Virus record (IMG/VR): IMGVR_UViG_3300032046_004423
Coordinates: 95,358-109,607 of that record
DNA from: a virus
Lineage: Duplodnaviria > Heunggongvirae > Uroviricota > Caudoviricetes
Strand: one strand, 5' to 3'
DNA length: 14,250 bases
Shown here piece after piece: positions 2,091-14,159 of the stretch (its first letter is position 1; the number at the start of each line of letters is the position of its first letter). The translations under genes and the position numbers were made by a program. The notes below the pieces were generated by a model, which was not told the DNA's origin, made no database searches, and was given only the letters and a program-made list of their open reading frames with translations.

Positions 2091-2435
2091 CTATGATAGT
2101 ACCTTCTGGAAGATAGATACGAAGGTCATCACGAGTCCCCATACAAACATAGCCATTAAAGGGGTCCAAATTATCCACTTAACATAAATCCAGCCTCCCT
2201 GTATAAAAGCAAAGTCCCAAATAGCTGCCTTAAATAGTGCTCCAAAGTAGTTTGGAACAAAAGCGATTATATCAAGCATACCCCAAGACTCCTCACTTCC
2301 TACTTGCCTCCAAAGAAGTAAGGTATTAAGCGTACTTTGATGACTTGAACCAATTGTTCCCTGTTCTATAATTAAGCCTAGTATAGTCCCAACTACAAAT
2401 AAGAACACAAAGAAAGCTATATATTTCGGTGGCAT
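2091..2435 (-). CDS. Small integral membrane protein, 114 aa (putative virion membrane protein)
   Basis: AGGAG SD; start overlaps the upstream stop (TAATG); 2-3 hydrophobic helices (YIAFFVFLFVVGTILGLII; WIIWTPLMAMFVWGLVMTFVSIF). Confidence 0.75.
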   Translation of the reverse strand: MPPKYIAFFVFLFVVGTILGLIIEQGTIGSSHQSTLNTLLLWRQVGSEESWGMLDIIAFVPNYFGALFKAAIWDFAFIQGGWIYVKWIIWTPLMAMFVWGLVMTFVSIFQKVLS

Positions 2436-5263
2436 TACATACTCCTTGAGGCAACTAGATATGCACTACTAAATATAGCATAAACTATAGGTATCCACCA
2501 ACCAACACCACCAGTACTAGCCCCCACTGCTAAGCCAATACCAGTAGCTATAACAGCTAATAGAGCACTACCAGTCGCGACTGCTACTCCTACTCCTATC
2601 ATAATAGCCGCAAATATCATTAGAACTTCATATAGTGTATTCGTAGTCCACCCAAGTTCAACAGCTGCAGGCTGAATCAAGTCGAAAGGAAGCCAGCCTA
2701 TAGTAGTAATTTCCTCCTCCTGTTCCCATAAAGTAACATTGCCAGGTAATGGGAGTACAACAGGTAACTCACCCTCTTCAGTTGGTGCTGATATATAAGT
2801 AGTCATACTTTTTAAACCTCCCACTACTATAGTCAGGTTAGAATTTGAACCCCAAGCTATAGTACCATTATTACTACCTACTCTATCAACCAAGGTTGTA
2901 CCACTTATTATCGTATTTGGTTGGAACAGTAATTTTTGCACCCCATTTACAGTAATGCTAGTATAGTTCATATAAGGCATTACATTATTCTCTATCAACT
3001 TCCAGTTAGTAGAGTTAGTAGCAACACTCCAGTTGCCTAGACTAGTACTGCCCCCTTGAGTACCATCTATCCAAATAGAAAGATATCCCCCATGCCCACT
3101 AGCAATTGTACCATTAGCCATTACTTTGATTATATGCTCTCCACCTGAAATCCCTGTAGCAGTAGCATTTATTGTAGTAGCCGTTTCATTACACCCAAAG
3201 TCAAATTCAAGGAGGTCGATGGAACTTGGATATGTAGCAGTATTGTGAAATTTAATCCTTGCTTTAGTCACAGAATATGTCCCCCCCAGACTCTTATCAA
3301 TCCACATACCATCTGTAAAAGTACCATTATAAACATCGTGCCAAGCACTACTATAGTATACATCTAAATCCACAAGGTCTACAAAACCATACGAGTTACT
3401 AGTATAAAATCTCAGCTTACTACAGTTTGTAGCAGTAATAGTTAGATTCAAAAAGCTTCCCCACGAACTCGCAGGGATATCAGGCTCAGCTCCCACTACA
3501 CCGAAAGCATCATCATAAGCATAAGTCTCAAGACCCCATTTACTATCTGCATCTTCATATCCAGTTGGTGAAGTCCAGTTTATAACACCAAGTATTGATG
3601 AAGTTATATTACCAGTACCACTCACATATGTTCTAATAACATTCTGCTTATAACTTAAATTCCCAACAACAGAGGTATTGACATATCCATCCTGCTCAAT
3701 AATAAAGTTATTTGCTAGTCCTAAAGTAGCACTATCTGCAACTGTTACATTACCACCATTACCAGTTATTAAACCAAATGAAGGATTAGCAGGACTATAT
3801 CCTGTCTCAAACCTATACTGCCTCTGCTGATTAGCTATCAAACTAGGAATAAAGACACCAATCTTATCATCAGCTACCATATATAATCCTTCAGTTGTCC
3901 CCTCAAACATCCTGGTATCTAAACAAGTACTACTCAAGTAACCAAAATCTATAGCTTGCGCGGTACCGAAAGGAACCAAAGCTGGAACACCAATTCTATC
4001 AGTAACCGATATATCAATTATGGTTATTTCAGACCTATAGGCCCCAGAACTATATATTACTGCCTCAGTAAGAAGCTGAACAGTAGTTCCATATCCCGTA
4101 CCTGCTGAGTTAATAGCATAAGCCCTAACACGGTAACTCGTATCTGGACTTAAACTAGCTATAACTTTAGTATAAGAACCGTTGCCAAAACTACCGCTAT
4201 CATAAGCTATGCTACTAGAAGTAGTAGGATCCCCCGAGGTACCCTCCATATAGCAGAAACCTCTACTAGTACAATTCTCACCACCAGTATCAGTGATATT
4301 TCCATTACCTGTAGCATAGGTTGTTCCTATACCAGATACCTCCTGAGTAGTAACTGTAGGTATTACTATCCCCGGTGTCTCATAACTTACTATAACTAAA
4401 CCGGAACCACCAGCCATACCAACCTGTAGTTCTCCACCACCACCCCCACCCCCACCTGTATTTACTGTTCCCGCTACTGCTGCAATTGGTCCACCACCAT
4501 CCTTACCTGCTCCTGCTCCCCCACCACCTAGACCACCAGGAGCTACAGCTGTAATTAAATTGTGGGTACTACCTCCACCACCACCAGCATAGTAAACAGA
4601 TGAACCAGAAATCGAACAAGCCGTCCCATTACCTCCCTTACCTCCCCCTGCTGCACCACCATTAGCACCAACTACACTAGCTCCACCTCCACCACCTGCA
4701 CAATGGTAGGTAGCGCCAGAGCCAGCCCCACCATCGTATCCCTGCCTCGGAGAAATATAGTCAGCATCCCCTCCAGCCCCAGATTCTTGCCCTCCACCTC
4801 CACCAGAACCCCCAGGAGATCCTGCATGGTTAATATAGTATCCTCCTCCACCACCCCCGATTGCAGTTAGTATATCAAATACAGAATTACTGCCATTAGT
4901 TCCTTGACCTGAACTTGCACCAGCACCTCCATCCCCAACTGTAACAGTTAATTCCGCTTCAGGTATAACAGTATAAGTCGCATTATAAATAAAACCTCCT
5001 GCACCACCTCCACCACCCTCGCCTGTAGTATCATTACCACCACCACCACCCCCACCTGCTACTACTAAAACTTTTACTGAAGTTACTCCAATAGGTACTG
5101 TCCATTTACCCCCAACAGGAGTAGAGTTAAAAGCTACAATAGTTTCTCCCGAAGCAAAAGTAGAACTGCTAGGAATAGCTAGTAACGTTCCAACTAGCAT
5201 ACCTACTATAAGTAAAGTTGGTAGTAGATACCCTACAGGTCTATTTAGCTTTTTAAACATCAA
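2435..5263 (-). CDS. Large secreted, C-terminally membrane-anchored Gly-rich adhesin/spike-like protein, 942 aa
   Basis: Signal-peptide-like N-terminus (...AIPSSSTFA|SG); Gly-rich domain about aa 42-294 (VKVLVVAGGGGGG...GGSGLVIVSY); FN3-like domain about aa 302-399 (PTVTT...ATGNGNITDTGG...RGFCY...YRVRAYAINSAGTGYG); DUF2341-like stretch (YRSEITI...LDTRM); beta-rich S/T/N region; C-terminal TM helices. GGGGAGG SD. Confidence 0.8.
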   Translation of the reverse strand: MMFKKLNRPVGYLLPTLLIVGMLVGTLLAIPSSSTFASGETIVAFNSTPVGGKWTVPIGVTSVKVLVVAGGGGGGGNDTTGEGGGGGAGGFIYNATYTVIPEAELTVTVGDGGAGASSGQGTNGSNSVFDILTAIGGGGGGYYINHAGSPGGSGGGGGQESGAGGDADYISPRQGYDGGAGSGATYHCAGGGGGASVVGANGGAAGGGKGGNGTACSISGSSVYYAGGGGGSTHNLITAVAPGGLGGGGAGAGKDGGGPIAAVAGTVNTGGGGGGGGELQVGMAGGSGLVIVSYETPGIVIPTVTTQEVSGIGTTYATGNGNITDTGGENCTSRGFCYMEGTSGDPTTSSSIAYDSGSFGNGSYTKVIASLSPDTSYRVRAYAINSAGTGYGTTVQLLTEAVIYSSGAYRSEITIIDISVTDRIGVPALVPFGTAQAIDFGYLSSTCLDTRMFEGTTEGLYMVADDKIGVFIPSLIANQQRQYRFETGYSPANPSFGLITGNGGNVTVADSATLGLANNFIIEQDGYVNTSVVGNLSYKQNVIRTYVSGTGNITSSILGVINWTSPTGYEDADSKWGLETYAYDDAFGVVGAEPDIPASSWGSFLNLTITATNCSKLRFYTSNSYGFVDLVDLDVYYSSAWHDVYNGTFTDGMWIDKSLGGTYSVTKARIKFHNTATYPSSIDLLEFDFGCNETATTINATATGISGGEHIIKVMANGTIASGHGGYLSIWIDGTQGGSTSLGNWSVATNSTNWKLIENNVMPYMNYTSITVNGVQKLLFQPNTIISGTTLVDRVGSNNGTIAWGSNSNLTIVVGGLKSMTTYISAPTEEGELPVVLPLPGNVTLWEQEEEITTIGWLPFDLIQPAAVELGWTTNTLYEVLMIFAAIMIGVGVAVATGSALLAVIATGIGLAVGASTGGVGWWIPIVYAIFSSAYLVASRSM

Positions 5264-11758: not shown

Positions 11759-12310
11759 CTATTTTAGATATCTAATAAACCCTTTCTTAACTAACTGAGA
11801 AAGTGCTCTTCCTACTTCCTCACCTGTTAAACCAGTAGCTATCTCTAACTGACTAGAATCAGTATATCCATCAACGATTGCTAAATAAACAGCTTTTTCC
11901 TCAGTAGGCATATTAGCTGCAGCCCCTCCCTGAAATGCCCTACTAACATCCTCTTCACCCCACTCATCTCCAGGTTGTAATACTGTTCCTAAGTAACTAC
12001 CTCCCCCAGCTACTGCCCTTTCCTCCTGTGTCATATTTCTCCACTCTTCTCTCCCCGCTATCTGTGTCTGCTCTGTTCTATAAAACGGGCTTGCCTCCAT
12101 CATATATGCTCTATTCGCGCCAGCAACCGCTGCACTCACCTCACAAGGTGATAGTCCAGCTGCTTCTGCTTGACTCTTTGCAGAACTAACTCCACTCTGC
12201 CAGTTCTGATAGTCCTGTTTCGCTGCATTTATACTTTGTTGGGCCTTTGTAGGGTTACTACCCCCAACAGGTCCCCCACCCAAACTAGAAGCAATATTTC
12301 CCCATGCCAT
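11759..12310 (-). CDS. Winged-helix protein, paralog 2 (183 aa), low-complexity N-terminus
   Basis: C-terminal MPTEEKAVYLAIVDGYTDSSQLEIATGLTGEEVGRALSQLVKKGFI. Confidence 0.8.
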   Translation of the reverse strand: MAWGNIASSLGGGPVGGSNPTKAQQSINAAKQDYQNWQSGVSSAKSQAEAAGLSPCEVSAAVAGANRAYMMEASPFYRTEQTQIAGREEWRNMTQEERAVAGGGSYLGTVLQPGDEWGEEDVSRAFQGGAAANMPTEEKAVYLAIVDGYTDSSQLEIATGLTGEEVGRALSQLVKKGFIRYLK

Positions 12311-12314
12311 AATA

Positions 12315-12890
12315 CTACGCCTTTATATAACCTTTACTAAGTAACCAGTGAAAAGCCCTACCTATCTCCTCATTTGTCAATCCTGTAGCTACTCCCAAAC
12401 TATCAGGACTAGTATAACCCTCCTGTATTGCCTGATAAACAGATTTCTCATTAGCAGGCATACCAGAAGGTATACCAACAGGTGTATCAGGCATCCGAGA
12501 TGCCTGACGGTTAGGCATAGTTCTAATCTTTAAATAGTTACCAGCTATTCCTCCTCCTCCCCCAAACTTTGGTAACAAACCACGCATAGACCCAGTTGAG
12601 ATTGCTACCCCTCCAGATATATTCCTAGCTGGTACTAACCTCAGCTTTGCCCCCTCCGACAAACCAGGTATTTTTTTACTACCAGCACTCCACTCATTAC
12701 TGGGCCTTCTTGCCTCTACCTCAGTAGGTTTTTCTGGGTGTGGAAAAGTCTTTACCCAACTAGGATTTTCTCCCCCCGGGCCAACAAAACCCCCACCTCC
12801 TGGTTTAGAATTTGAAGTTGGTGTTTGTGCTCCCAATCCATACCGTGGGTCCATATCATGAGCAAGTACTGCAGAAAGTTTACTTACCAT
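12315..12890 (-). CDS. Winged-helix protein, paralog 1 (191 aa), Gly/Pro-rich N-terminus
   Basis: AGGAG SD; C-terminal MPANEKSVYQAIQEGYTSPDSLGVATGLTNEEIGRAFHWLLSKGYI. Confidence 0.8.
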   Translation of the reverse strand: MVSKLSAVLAHDMDPRYGLGAQTPTSNSKPGGGGFVGPGGENPSWVKTFPHPEKPTEVEARRPSNEWSAGSKKIPGLSEGAKLRLVPARNISGGVAISTGSMRGLLPKFGGGGGIAGNYLKIRTMPNRQASRMPDTPVGIPSGMPANEKSVYQAIQEGYTSPDSLGVATGLTNEEIGRAFHWLLSKGYIKA

Positions 12891-12927: not shown

Positions 12928-12955
12928 AATGGGGAGTATATTTCAACTCCCCATT
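12928..12955 (-). terminator. Stem-loop after the capsid-like gene (terminator or mRNA-stabilising hairpin)
   Basis: Perfect 10-bp inverted repeat AATGGGGAGT (12928-12937) / ACTCCCCATT (12946-12955) with 8-nt loop, 12 nt past the TAA. No clean U-tract follows. Confidence 0.55.
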
Positions 12956-12967
12956 TACTGACTAGTG

Positions 12968-13133
12968 TTAACCCTGGCCTCCTATCCATGCTACTGCCCC
13001 TAATAGGATAACTGCGACGAAAACGTATGGCAGAACACCAACTAGAGCTGCTAAACCAGTAGGACTAGTAATAGCTGCAGTAGTCTGCAGGATGACCGGA
13101 ACCAGACTTACACCTACCACGATGGAAATCATG
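12968..13133 (-). CDS. Exon 2 of an intron-split small hydrophobic protein; putative spindle-shaped-virus-type major capsid protein (not in ORF track)
   Basis: C + ATG ATT TCC...GGT TAA encodes MISIVVGVSLVPVILQTTAAITSPTGLAALVGVLPYVFVAVILLGAVAWIGGQG*: two hydrophobic helices with a polar T/S/P/G linker. It begins right after the predicted intron omega-G. Confidence 0.75.
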
Positions 13134-13322
13134 CAACCTTATCCCAGGTTTTCCTGAGGGTTGGACTTTATCTTCACCCATTACTGGGTGTCCCGTGTAA
13201 AGTCTCTACACTTGCCTGTCTTTCAACTGCTAGCTCGGTATTACCATAAGTATCACTACCCTTAGGCTTCACCGACTTAGCGGGATTTATTACCTCTCAA
13301 TTACTCAAGAGGAGCACCACTT

Positions 13323-14072
13323 CTAGTATAAACCAAAGGCTTCTAGTTTTGCTAGAAACTTAGAACTATCAAGCCCAGTGTGCCTTCTAAGTCCAAGCTC
13401 ACATTCCCGAAGCACCAGGCATCTATAACCAGCCTCCCCATATAGATACATTCTGGCTACTTCCTCCAACTCATCCCTATGCCAGTAATCACCAAAAAGT
13501 TCAATGCAATCCTTTACACCGTCAGTTCTATAGAAATCAGGTACCTTTCCTGCTACTACTAGCTCACCCTCATTGAACTTCCACTTACCTGGACTTACAA
13601 AGTCTAGCAAATCCTTTAGCCAAGATTCGGGATAGTTAGGATGTAAACTACCAGCCCCAGACCTCATTGCAGCTATCTGGCTATTCTTAAACTCTGGATC
13701 TGACCACAGGTTATTATGAACCCTACTTAGCCTTTCCCTATAACCAGGCTGACTCCACATTTCCTTAGCAGTCCTGGAGAAATCCTCTGAGGACCTTGTA
13801 GATGGAACACCAAACTTCGCTTCTGAGATTGCATCTCCCCAAGTTATGTCTCTGCCTGTAAGAGCCTTAGATATAGCCTCATTTCTCTCAGCCGCAAACT
13901 CCTGCCAAGAACCCATAGACTCAAGAACGAGGTCAGAATAGATACTAGCATCTGGGAACATTGCCCGGTACTCAAGGACAGTACCTATTCCATGAGCAGA
14001 CTGTAGATGCGTACCAGTAATCTGTTCATAACTCAGACCACAAAGCCTGCACTCTACTAAGTACTTTCCCAA
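13323..14072 (-). CDS. Intron-encoded putative homing endonuclease, Vsr-like/EDxHD-type PD-(D/E)xK nuclease with N-terminal C2H2 Zn finger
   Basis: TTG start with GGGGG SD; CRLC...HLQSAH...EYRAMFP N-terminus; helical repeats (ISKALTG/ISEAKFG; WSQPGYR/WSDPEFK); C-terminal PNYPE...VPDF...IELFGDYWH...LVLRECE; lies between P1 and the ribozyme core. Confidence 0.82.
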   Translation of the reverse strand: MGKYLVECRLCGLSYEQITGTHLQSAHGIGTVLEYRAMFPDASIYSDLVLESMGSWQEFAAERNEAISKALTGRDITWGDAISEAKFGVPSTRSSEDFSRTAKEMWSQPGYRERLSRVHNNLWSDPEFKNSQIAAMRSGAGSLHPNYPESWLKDLLDFVSPGKWKFNEGELVVAGKVPDFYRTDGVKDCIELFGDYWHRDELEEVARMYLYGEAGYRCLVLRECELGLRRHTGLDSSKFLAKLEAFGLY

Positions 14073-14095
14073 CCATTCCCCCTAGATTGTAACCT

Positions 14096-14106
14096 GTAGC
14101 AGTCAT
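14096..14106 (-). other. Predicted internal guide sequence (IGS) of the intron
   Basis: Minus-strand AUGACUGCUAC is the exact 11-nt complement of the ligated exons GUAGCAGU|CAU. Confidence 0.65.
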
Positions 14107-14127
14107 TAAAAGTCGATGCCGATAAGT

Positions 14128-14141
14128 ACTGCTACTAACAC
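14128..14141 (-). CDS. Predicted exon 1 of the capsid-like gene (GTG TTA GTA GCA GT)
   Basis: GGGAGG SD 9 nt upstream of GTG; joins exon 2 in frame (GT|C = Val). The alternative junction GGC AT|C at 14116 is also in frame. Confidence 0.55.
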
Positions 14142-14159
14142 ATGCTAAAACCTCCCTTT

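Follow-up and report, generated by a model that had tools for sequence, protein, structure and literature searches.

The window analyzed here forms the final 14.25 kb of an IMG/VR virus record of 109,607 bp (IMGVR_UViG_3300032046_004423), a record estimated to be 82% complete. Near the end of this window, on its minus strand, lie a short capsid-type gene that is split in two, the group I intron that splits it, and an open reading frame (ORF) within the intron for a predicted homing endonuclease (Table 1). Behind a GGGAGG box, the minus strand reads GTG TTA GTA GCA GTA CTT ATC GGC ATC GAC TTT TAA, whereas codons 10 to 63 of the gene stand apart as a plain ATG ORF of 54 aa (13132..12968, minus strand). 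The product expected after splicing has 63 aa, MLVAVLIGI|MISIVVG..., and the 54-aa part consists of two hydrophobic stretches. A block upstream of the gene, AAAGGGAGGTTT, is kept in the intron-less alleles L004 to L006 of relatives, as well as in locus L007. Taken together, the locus most probably holds a mobile 982-nt group I intron, equipped with an endonuclease of the EDxHD family, inside codon 9 (AU|C) of a capsid gene of the SSV1/His1 type.

The boundaries of the intron are set by comparison with uninterrupted relatives. A search with the 54-aa ORF found 142 homologs, most of them 63 to 75 aa long and starting MLVAVLIGI-MISIVVG..., and about 110 cluster representatives have an uninterrupted N-terminus of the MLVAVLIGI type, with (L/M)-(I/V)-(G/S/T)-I at codons 6 to 9. 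At the DNA level, four intron-less alleles (L003 to L006) read ...ATCGG(T/C)AT(T/A)ATGAT..., and the window equals them only if T14116 joins C13133 (GGCAT|CATGATT). Because only this joining reproduces the intron-less alleles, the intron is placed at 14115..13134 (982 nt) and the product at 63 aa; the joined exons match the alleles in both DNA and protein, and the differences in exon 1 between alleles are mostly synonymous. The sequence by itself leaves a 1-nt ambiguity, C14115 being the same base as C13133, which is resolved by the rules for group I introns: the 5′ splice site follows a U, and the intron ends in G.

The original prediction, made from the letters of this stretch, had recognized that a group I intron splits the gene, and a match to the Rfam group I model between the short exon 1 and the hydrophobic ORF bears this out. 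It had, however, removed 13134 to 14127. Its 3′ boundary stands (G13134 as the last intron base, with exon 2 starting at C13133), but the 5′ boundary belongs after T14116 and not after T14128. With an intron at 14127..13134, GUAGCAGU and ACUGCUAC would make up P1, the splice-site pair would be a non-canonical U-A, and a 59-aa protein, MLVAV|MISIV..., would result. Such a deletion is in frame, the 8-bp exon-intron helix at 14135-14128/14103-14096 really exists, and a different intron is truly inserted at codon 5 (GGCGU|U) in loci L024 and L025. Yet codons 6 to 9 (CTT ATC GGC AT) still stand directly after codon 5 in the window, with the same meaning as in the intron-less alleles, and the deletion would take out LIGI, the four codons for which the approximately 110 uninterrupted homologs hold the pattern given above. 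In addition, five further introns of the codon-9 site have kept the canonical P1 that has U.G at 14116 in the window. When compared with the intron-less homologs, the ligated sequence predicted earlier does not match, and the alleles fit a junction 12 nt further downstream, which gives 63 aa instead of 59. The junction after T14128 is almost certainly wrong; the helix proposed as its P1 is real, but encloses the splice site without defining it.

The Rfam model RF00028 (group I intron) matches the minus strand at 13339..13142 with 52.3 bits (gathering score, 50; E = 4.7e-11), and the other 95 kb of the same genome gave no further Rfam match. The pairs of P1 are, in order, G.U, G-C, C-G, A-U, U.G at the splice site, C-G, and G.U, which sets U14116 opposite G13317 as the canonical wobble, with G13134 as the last intron base. 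RNAalifold, applied to an alignment from which the ORF had been deleted, predicts the same GGCAU|CG-UGGUGCU P1, and all six codon-9-site introns that were read (the window, L007, L015, L016, L022, and L026) combine a U.G pair at the 5′ splice site with G as their final base. Since the guide UGGUGCU directly follows the stop codon of the endonuclease ORF and pairs with the exon end, the ORF lies in the P1 loop. In an alignment of four codon-9-site cores, covering 45 pairs (P2 to P9, including the P3/P7 pseudoknot), 98.9% of cells are standard pairs and 17 of the 45 pairs have changed on both sides, figures to be read in the light of the structure having been drawn from the same four sequences, and only four. 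None of 500 shuffles was as good, and slid partners were 26 to 46% paired (at most 45.5%). Compensatory changes are plain in P2, P8, and P9 despite the small set.

Given this structure, the pre-mRNA would form a compact ribozyme made up of helices P1 to P9, in which the exon end GGCAU would pair with the guide GGUGCU in P1 and set the splice-site U opposite G. Exogenous guanosine would then attack after U14116, and the exons would be ligated after G13134, so that the ligated RNA would read ...CGGCAU-CAUGAUUUCC... and encode MLVAVLIGI-MISIVVG...GGQG. By analogy with the I-Bth0305I family, the endonuclease may cleave the capsid gene of co-infecting relatives where it is intron-less, whereby the intron would be copied into it.

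It is also conceivable that the intron is irrelevant to expression, the 54-aa ORF (12968..13132) being translated from Met10 on unspliced RNA and exon 1 being a relic. Met10 hardly varies in the family, the ORF is a complete one that opens with this ATG and has a weak AAGG 4 nt upstream, and gene callers report exactly this 54-aa product. Exon 1, however, retains a start codon, the conserved Shine-Dalgarno (SD) block, and the exact N-terminus of the family, nine residues that fall on a part of helix 1 in the alignment with mature SSV VP1. The ribozyme core is intact and co-varying, and the sequence upstream of Met10 falls within P9 and the 3′-terminal region of the ribozyme. Translation from Met10 on unspliced RNA is quite improbable on this evidence, and we retain the spliced 63-aa product as the preferred reading. 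The earlier statement that the protein is invisible to six-frame ORF calling is true of its first nine codons, which are hidden, but not of codons 10 to 63, which form an ordinary ATG ORF for which 54-aa products have been called publicly (P0001 and P0006).

The hairpin that encloses the 5′ splice site has kin in other introns, with a 7-bp GUAGCAG/CUGCUAC in L026 and a shifted UUAGUAGC/GCUACUAA in L007. A scheme of splicing-gated translation, in which this hairpin between exon 1 and the intron would mask the SD and start codon until splicing, was dropped, as the region is not more open after splicing in L026 or L022 (probability that the SD and start codon are unpaired, 0.51 before and 0.33 after splicing in L026, and 0.45 before and 0.38 after in L022).

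Table 1. Features of the split capsid-type gene and its intron in the window, followed by introns and insertion sites in relatives
Feature	Position	Strand	Basis or remark
Shine-Dalgarno-like GGGAGG	14151..14156	-	Upstream of exon 1 start codon; read directly
Exon 1: GTG start + 8 codons + 2 nt (MLVAVLIG + AT of Ile9)	14116..14141	-	Matches first 9 codons of intron-less alleles, protein and DNA
Group I intron, 982 nt, C14115 to terminal G13134	13134..14115	-	RF00028 match; removal restores intron-less allele sequence
Exon 2: C of Ile9, codons 10-63, TAA stop	12968..13133	-	ORF list; 96-98% identity to database homologs
Predicted homing endonuclease ORF, 249 aa, TTG start behind GGGGG	13323..14072	-	In P1 loop; family profile and AlphaFold/Foldseek
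P1 5′ strand GGCAU|CG	14114..14120	-	Spans 5′ splice site; pairs with UGGUGCU 13319..13313
Internal guide sequence (P1 3′ strand) UGGUGCU	13313..13319	-	Just past endonuclease stop codon; read directly
8-bp hairpin GUAGCAGU (14135-14128) / ACUGCUAC (14103-14096)	14096..14135	-	Encloses 5′ splice site; read directly
Ribozyme core	13142..13339	-	Rfam alignment
P2	13312-13305/13300-13293	-	Rfam alignment
P3	13285-13281/13195-13191	-	Rfam alignment
P4	13275-13270/13240-13235	-	Rfam alignment
P5	13267-13265/13245-13243 + 13260-13257/13252-13249	-	Rfam alignment
P6	13229-13225/13220-13216	-	Rfam alignment
P7	13204-13199/13169-13164	-	Rfam alignment
P8	13190-13186/13179-13175	-	Rfam alignment
P9	13158-13153/13148-13143	-	Rfam alignment
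L007, ORF-less intron, 225 nt	codon-9 site		55.3 bits
L015, ORF-less intron, 195 nt	codon-9 site		44.6 bits
L016, ORF-less intron, 206 nt	codon-9 site		
L022, ORF-less intron, 220 nt	codon-9 site		54.4 bits
L026 (60.5-kb contig), 969-nt intron	codon-9 site		68%-identical endonuclease ORF in same position
Site 0, GGCGU|U	codon 5		L024, L025; 72.9 bits
Site 1, GGCAU|C	codon 9		Window and five others
Site 2	~codon 15		Protein calls P0106, P0109 only; no DNA-level locus
Site 3, UGGAU|A	codon 59		L015; 81.3 bits
Site 4, GGGGGU|	codon 61		L016, L023; 51.6 bits (L023)

The 63-aa protein is very likely homologous to the capsid proteins VP1 of SSV1 and SSV19 and VP21 of His1, as judged by profile comparison. 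A capsid-family profile built from 73 homologs and searched against 177,635 PDB sequences has a single match, SSV19 VP1 (7xdi_A, E = 3.3e-5), with an alignment across both helices. With hhalign, the family aligns to seven fusellovirus VP1 proteins taken from GenBank records with a probability of 94.5% (E = 8e-8, 60 columns) and to His1 VP21 with a probability of 70.8% (E = 3.8e-5). Composition does not explain the match, because the profile scores for mature SSV1 VP1 (28.1 bits) and His1 VP21 (18.5 bits) exceed the maxima reached in 1000 composition-preserving shuffles of each (11.3 and 10.2 bits, respectively; z above 10). The Pfam family His1_capsid (PF25665) gives sub-threshold matches in 49 of the 73 members (best member, E = 1.9e-4). 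The AlphaFold model of P0003, a 96%-identical homolog, is a helical hairpin of residues 2-28 and 34-61 (predicted local distance difference test [pLDDT], 86), for which the best PDB match is again 7xdi_A (template modeling [TM] score, 0.70; root mean square deviation, 2.5 Å). Within the family, the two helices barely differ between members, in contrast to a hypervariable connecting loop. Homology to spindle-virus capsid proteins had been proposed in the original prediction on the strength of an SSV1 VP1 sequence; the sequence given there is correct (X07234 translates to ...GVLLGLFIFILIGIVLLPVIVSQVNNLTSGTSPQVTGTNATLLNLVPLFY...), and the matches to VP1 and VP21 uphold the proposal. These matches needed profiles made from homologs, since searches of Pfam, PHROGs, and NCBIfam with the single capsid-type protein or the single endonuclease gave nothing. 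Similarly, a tblastn search that took the 54-aa ORF as its query gave no match even at E = 10 among 50,697 records of phages and archaeal viruses, the query being too short and hydrophobic for BLAST.

We further consider the 63-aa protein probably to be the major capsid protein (MCP) of a spindle-shaped virion, a role suggested by this homology. The competing explanation is that it is some other two-helix membrane protein (envelope, holin-like, or assembly), with the capsid gene situated in the unsequenced 18% of the genome or unrecognizable. Hydrophobic hairpins are indeed common, the structural match is not significant alone, the Pfam cut-off is missed, and the genome is incomplete and, at ~110 kb, far exceeds the classical genomes of SSV1/His1-type viruses. 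Against this explanation, the profile matches are specific, with one PDB match among 177,635, and lie far over the composition controls, the gene stands at the head of a structural gene cluster, and its helices are extremely conserved while the loop is hypervariable. Relatives hold two to three paralogs of the gene per contig, as is the case for spindle viruses of ANME-1 archaea with two MCPs and large genomes (PMC9894754), and no other capsid type is found among the Pfam and PHROG matches of the record. A non-capsid role is thus unlikely, and the MCP assignment is the one carried forward here.

Several observations weigh against the overall interpretation. We infer splicing from the sequence, and the RF00028 score of the window intron is barely over its threshold (52.3 versus 50). 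On the protein side, the Foldseek E value of the hairpin against 7xdi_A is 0.56, which is not significant by itself, helical hairpins being generic, and a structure search of the hairpin in BFVD gave non-specific helical hairpins only. P0003 falls below the cut-off of PF25665 (8.7 versus 27 bits), PF06281 (VP1_VP3) is not listed among its matches, and SSV1 VP3 is not matched by the capsid-family profile. The part of the genome missing from the record, which is only 82% complete, could hold another capsid gene. Finally, the only hint of a host comes from a 15-kb contig that carries one homolog and was assigned to the bin of a Bathyarchaeia metagenome-assembled genome, the one match in 185,579 species genomes.

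The record is without the hallmark genes of tailed phages. Terminase large subunit (TerL), portal, and HK97 capsid have no Pfam match in the 109.6-kb record and are absent from the strongest Pfam and PHROG matches of its larger ORFs, which have replication, DNA-modification, and glycosylation functions. No tRNA was found in a scan of the whole record, and a scan of the window for sigma-70-like promoters gave 35 sites versus 29 ± 5.4 in shuffles, which is not above expectation and is uninformative on the host domain. To our knowledge, the two-helix capsid class of SSV1 and His1 occurs only in archaeal viruses. Spindle viruses have been predicted for Bathyarchaeia and Methanosarcina (PMC10541130, PMC12451623), and the Itzamnaviridae and Tepeuviridae, predicted spindle viruses of large size that have one or two hydrophobic MCPs, have been described from ANME-1 archaea (PMC9894754). 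The window virus, likewise a predicted spindle virus, resembles the latter in its hydrophobic alpha-helical MCPs, sometimes encoded by two MCP genes, in a genome far larger than those of fuselloviruses, and in the division into a structural arm and an enzymatic arm with QueCDEF genes. The paper on the ANME-1 viruses reports an RNA-primed family B DNA polymerase in the large forms and leaves introns unmentioned (PMC9894754); the likeness drawn here to the window virus is one of described features.

The intron ORF is predicted, from family profiles and a structural model, to be an EDxHD homing endonuclease with the Vsr fold, similar to I-Bth0305I. The 249-aa protein has 4774 relatives at E values up to 0.001, and a profile of 50 of them matches the catalytic domain of I-Bth0305I (3r3p_A) at E = 5e-7 and Vsr at E = 1.5e-4 to 1.8e-4. 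The AlphaFold model (pLDDT, 87.5) has 3r3p_A as its top Foldseek match, with a TM score of 0.69 normalized to the target. E149, P178, and D179 are invariant in the 50 relatives, and E191, Y196, W197, H198, and E225 are nearly so; the conserved motifs are thus an invariant PD and a nearly invariant YWH. NUMOD3 (18 of 50), DUF559 (14 of 50), and ROS_MUCR (4 of 50) domains occur among these relatives; the endonuclease of the window itself has no Pfam match, and its model has a helical N-terminal region.

Judging from the sequences of relatives, the 63-codon capsid-type gene appears to be a hotspot for group I introns, with insertions at no fewer than five sites (codons 5, 9, ~15, 59, and 61) and up to two introns per gene, as in L015 and L016. 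RF00028 scores range from 44.6 to 69.8 bits for the codon-9-site introns in L007, L015, L022, and L026, and from 44.6 to 81.3 bits over all introns in relatives. Every site seen in DNA has its own U.G-containing P1, and intron removal restores the C-terminus of the family. The site near codon 15 is based on the N-terminal parts of the read-through proteins P0106 and P0109, which translate the J8/7-P7 consensus. Together with P0035, P0074, and P0130, these are public gene calls in which the translation of a ribozyme is fused to capsid exons, for example, DIVRH from GAUAUAGUCCG and QIRGKLN from CAAAUUCGGGGAAAGCUAAAC in L015 (J3/4-P4 region). Such chimeric calls are annotation artefacts that mark intron sites. 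The capsid family is sparse in IMG/VR, with 2 loci found by protein pattern, and the conserved intron block CGCTAAGTCGGTGAAGCCTAA has no match in IMG/VR and 1 in JGI metagenomes (L016). No RNA run is listed as containing the locus, and contigs of three sediment DNA runs show no exon joint there. In run X1, from the probable source sample, three short contigs match 30 to 52 nt of the ribozyme core (window 13184-13244), beyond which they turn into different intron-like sequence (for example, ..GGGUGAAGACAAAGUGCCGGAC..); this sample thus contains several related introns side by side, which break the assembly graph at the locus.

Two further features were seen in relatives. On the strand opposite to the capsid gene of L026, and upstream of it, a 264-aa gene (423-1217) with a faint LAGLIDADG_3 match may be a second, free-standing homing endonuclease at the locus. 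In some intron-less alleles, L008 (2650-2680) and L023 (285-300), the conserved start position has ATT and ACG, respectively, in place of ATG, GTG, or TTG, and the SD block and N-terminal codons are kept; these loci may use non-canonical start codons.

The two-helix protein gene is the first gene of the structural gene cluster. Fourteen nucleotides past its stop codon, and ahead of the SD of the next gene, lies a 9-bp stem-loop (AUGGGGAGU / ACUCCCCAU; 8-nt loop; window 12929-12954, minus strand) with a tail that is not U-rich, which could act as a terminator or attenuator and so favor capsid mRNA over that of the downstream genes. Directly downstream of the capsid gene are two tandem genes on the minus strand, 11759-12310 and 12315-12890, for proteins of 183 and 191 aa with a common C-terminal winged-helix-like domain of ~45 aa (..YQAIQEGYTSPDSLGVATGLTNEEIGRAF..). 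Their matches to winged helix-turn-helix families are only weak (PF24409, SSO5209, MreA), and they may be DNA-binding virion or regulatory proteins. Further on, the product of 2435-5263 (minus strand), 942 aa long, has a Gly_rich_2 domain (PF21722, E = 1e-27) as well as PHROG matches to tail-fibre-related families and is probably the adhesin or terminal fibre of the virion. The structural cluster ends with a radical SAM and SPASM enzyme (PF04055, PF13186; 364-1449, minus strand).

The split of this gene has consequences for annotation, as public data mis-call the capsid gene of the lineage, either cutting its products to 54 to 58 aa or reporting chimeric read-throughs, and the splice sites given here correct these calls. 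Five insertion sites within ~190 nt are an unusually dense record of repeated invasion, and the gene offers a compact system for the study of endonuclease target choice and of intron-host co-evolution. Because the supply of capsid protein would depend on splicing, it also becomes possible to test whether splicing puts a limit on virion production or determines its timing. Should the hosts be archaea, to which the one Bathyarchaeia hint points, group I introns would be self-splicing from a protein-coding late mRNA in archaeal cells. More tentatively, the capsid gene of a widespread lineage of large (~60-113 kb) non-tailed sediment viruses may be a hotspot of independent group I invasions in which intron/endonuclease pairs serve competition among co-infecting strains by marker exclusion at the capsid locus and are not only passengers, an extension that we regard as speculative and rather doubtful.

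With respect to known systems, the window protein shares with SSV1 and SSV19 VP1 (PDB 7XDI) and with His1 VP21 (PF25665) a length of ~60 to 80 aa, two hydrophobic helices, and a short variable loop, together with IxxGxxLxP as a motif of helix 1 and LxP/Y as one of helix 2. Unlike SSV1 VP1, it is without an N-terminal propeptide, and it ends in AVAWIGGQG whereas the SSV VP1/His1 VP21 class has a basic tail. Its gene is interrupted by an intron, and the genome, which measures ~110 kb and encodes polymerases of family A and of protein-primed family B, contrasts with the 14 to 24 kb of Fuselloviridae and Halspiviridae.

The EDxHD family is represented by I-Bth0305I, from the group I intron that Bacillus phage 0305phi8-36 carries in recA (PMC3239194; PDB 3R3P). 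The window ORF likewise lies within a virus gene's group I intron, its product has a Vsr-like nuclease domain at the C-terminus (E = 5e-7 by profile; best structural match), and a NUMOD-type N-terminal helical region, presumably DNA-binding, occurs in part of its family. In contrast to I-Bth0305I, whose ORF interrupts P5 (PMC3239194), the window ORF occupies the loop of P1, with the 5′ splice site on one side and the guide on the other, and the window protein has an extra N-terminal Cys/His motif resembling the MucR/Ros zinc finger.

In archaea, all 39 group I introns reported in one survey lie in rRNA genes of cellular genomes (PMC6125680). As in the window, some of these come with homing endonucleases, but the window intron is in a viral protein-coding gene. 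Full-text searches of the literature found no report of a group I intron in the capsid gene of a spindle virus or an archaeal virus, in agreement with the earlier remark that none had been described in a capsid gene of this class. In tailed phages, by comparison, group I introns are known from major capsid genes, for example, in the Delta and Zeta groups of crAss-like phages, with several per MCP gene (PMC7886860). These are, as proposed here, group I introns that are self-splicing and sit in a capsid gene, often with endonuclease ORFs, and they too break gene calls. The crAss-like targets, however, are HK97-fold genes of ~400 to 500 codons in tailed phages of bacteria, whereas the gene considered here is a 63-codon, two-helix gene of a non-tailed and probably archaeal virus, whose family, unlike the crAss-like MCP genes, has five insertion sites within 190 nt. 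Mobile group I introns, known in capsid genes of the HK97 type, are thus met here in the two-helix capsid class, and what lies at this locus is a canonical mobile group I intron with a predicted EDxHD endonuclease in a new kind of host gene.

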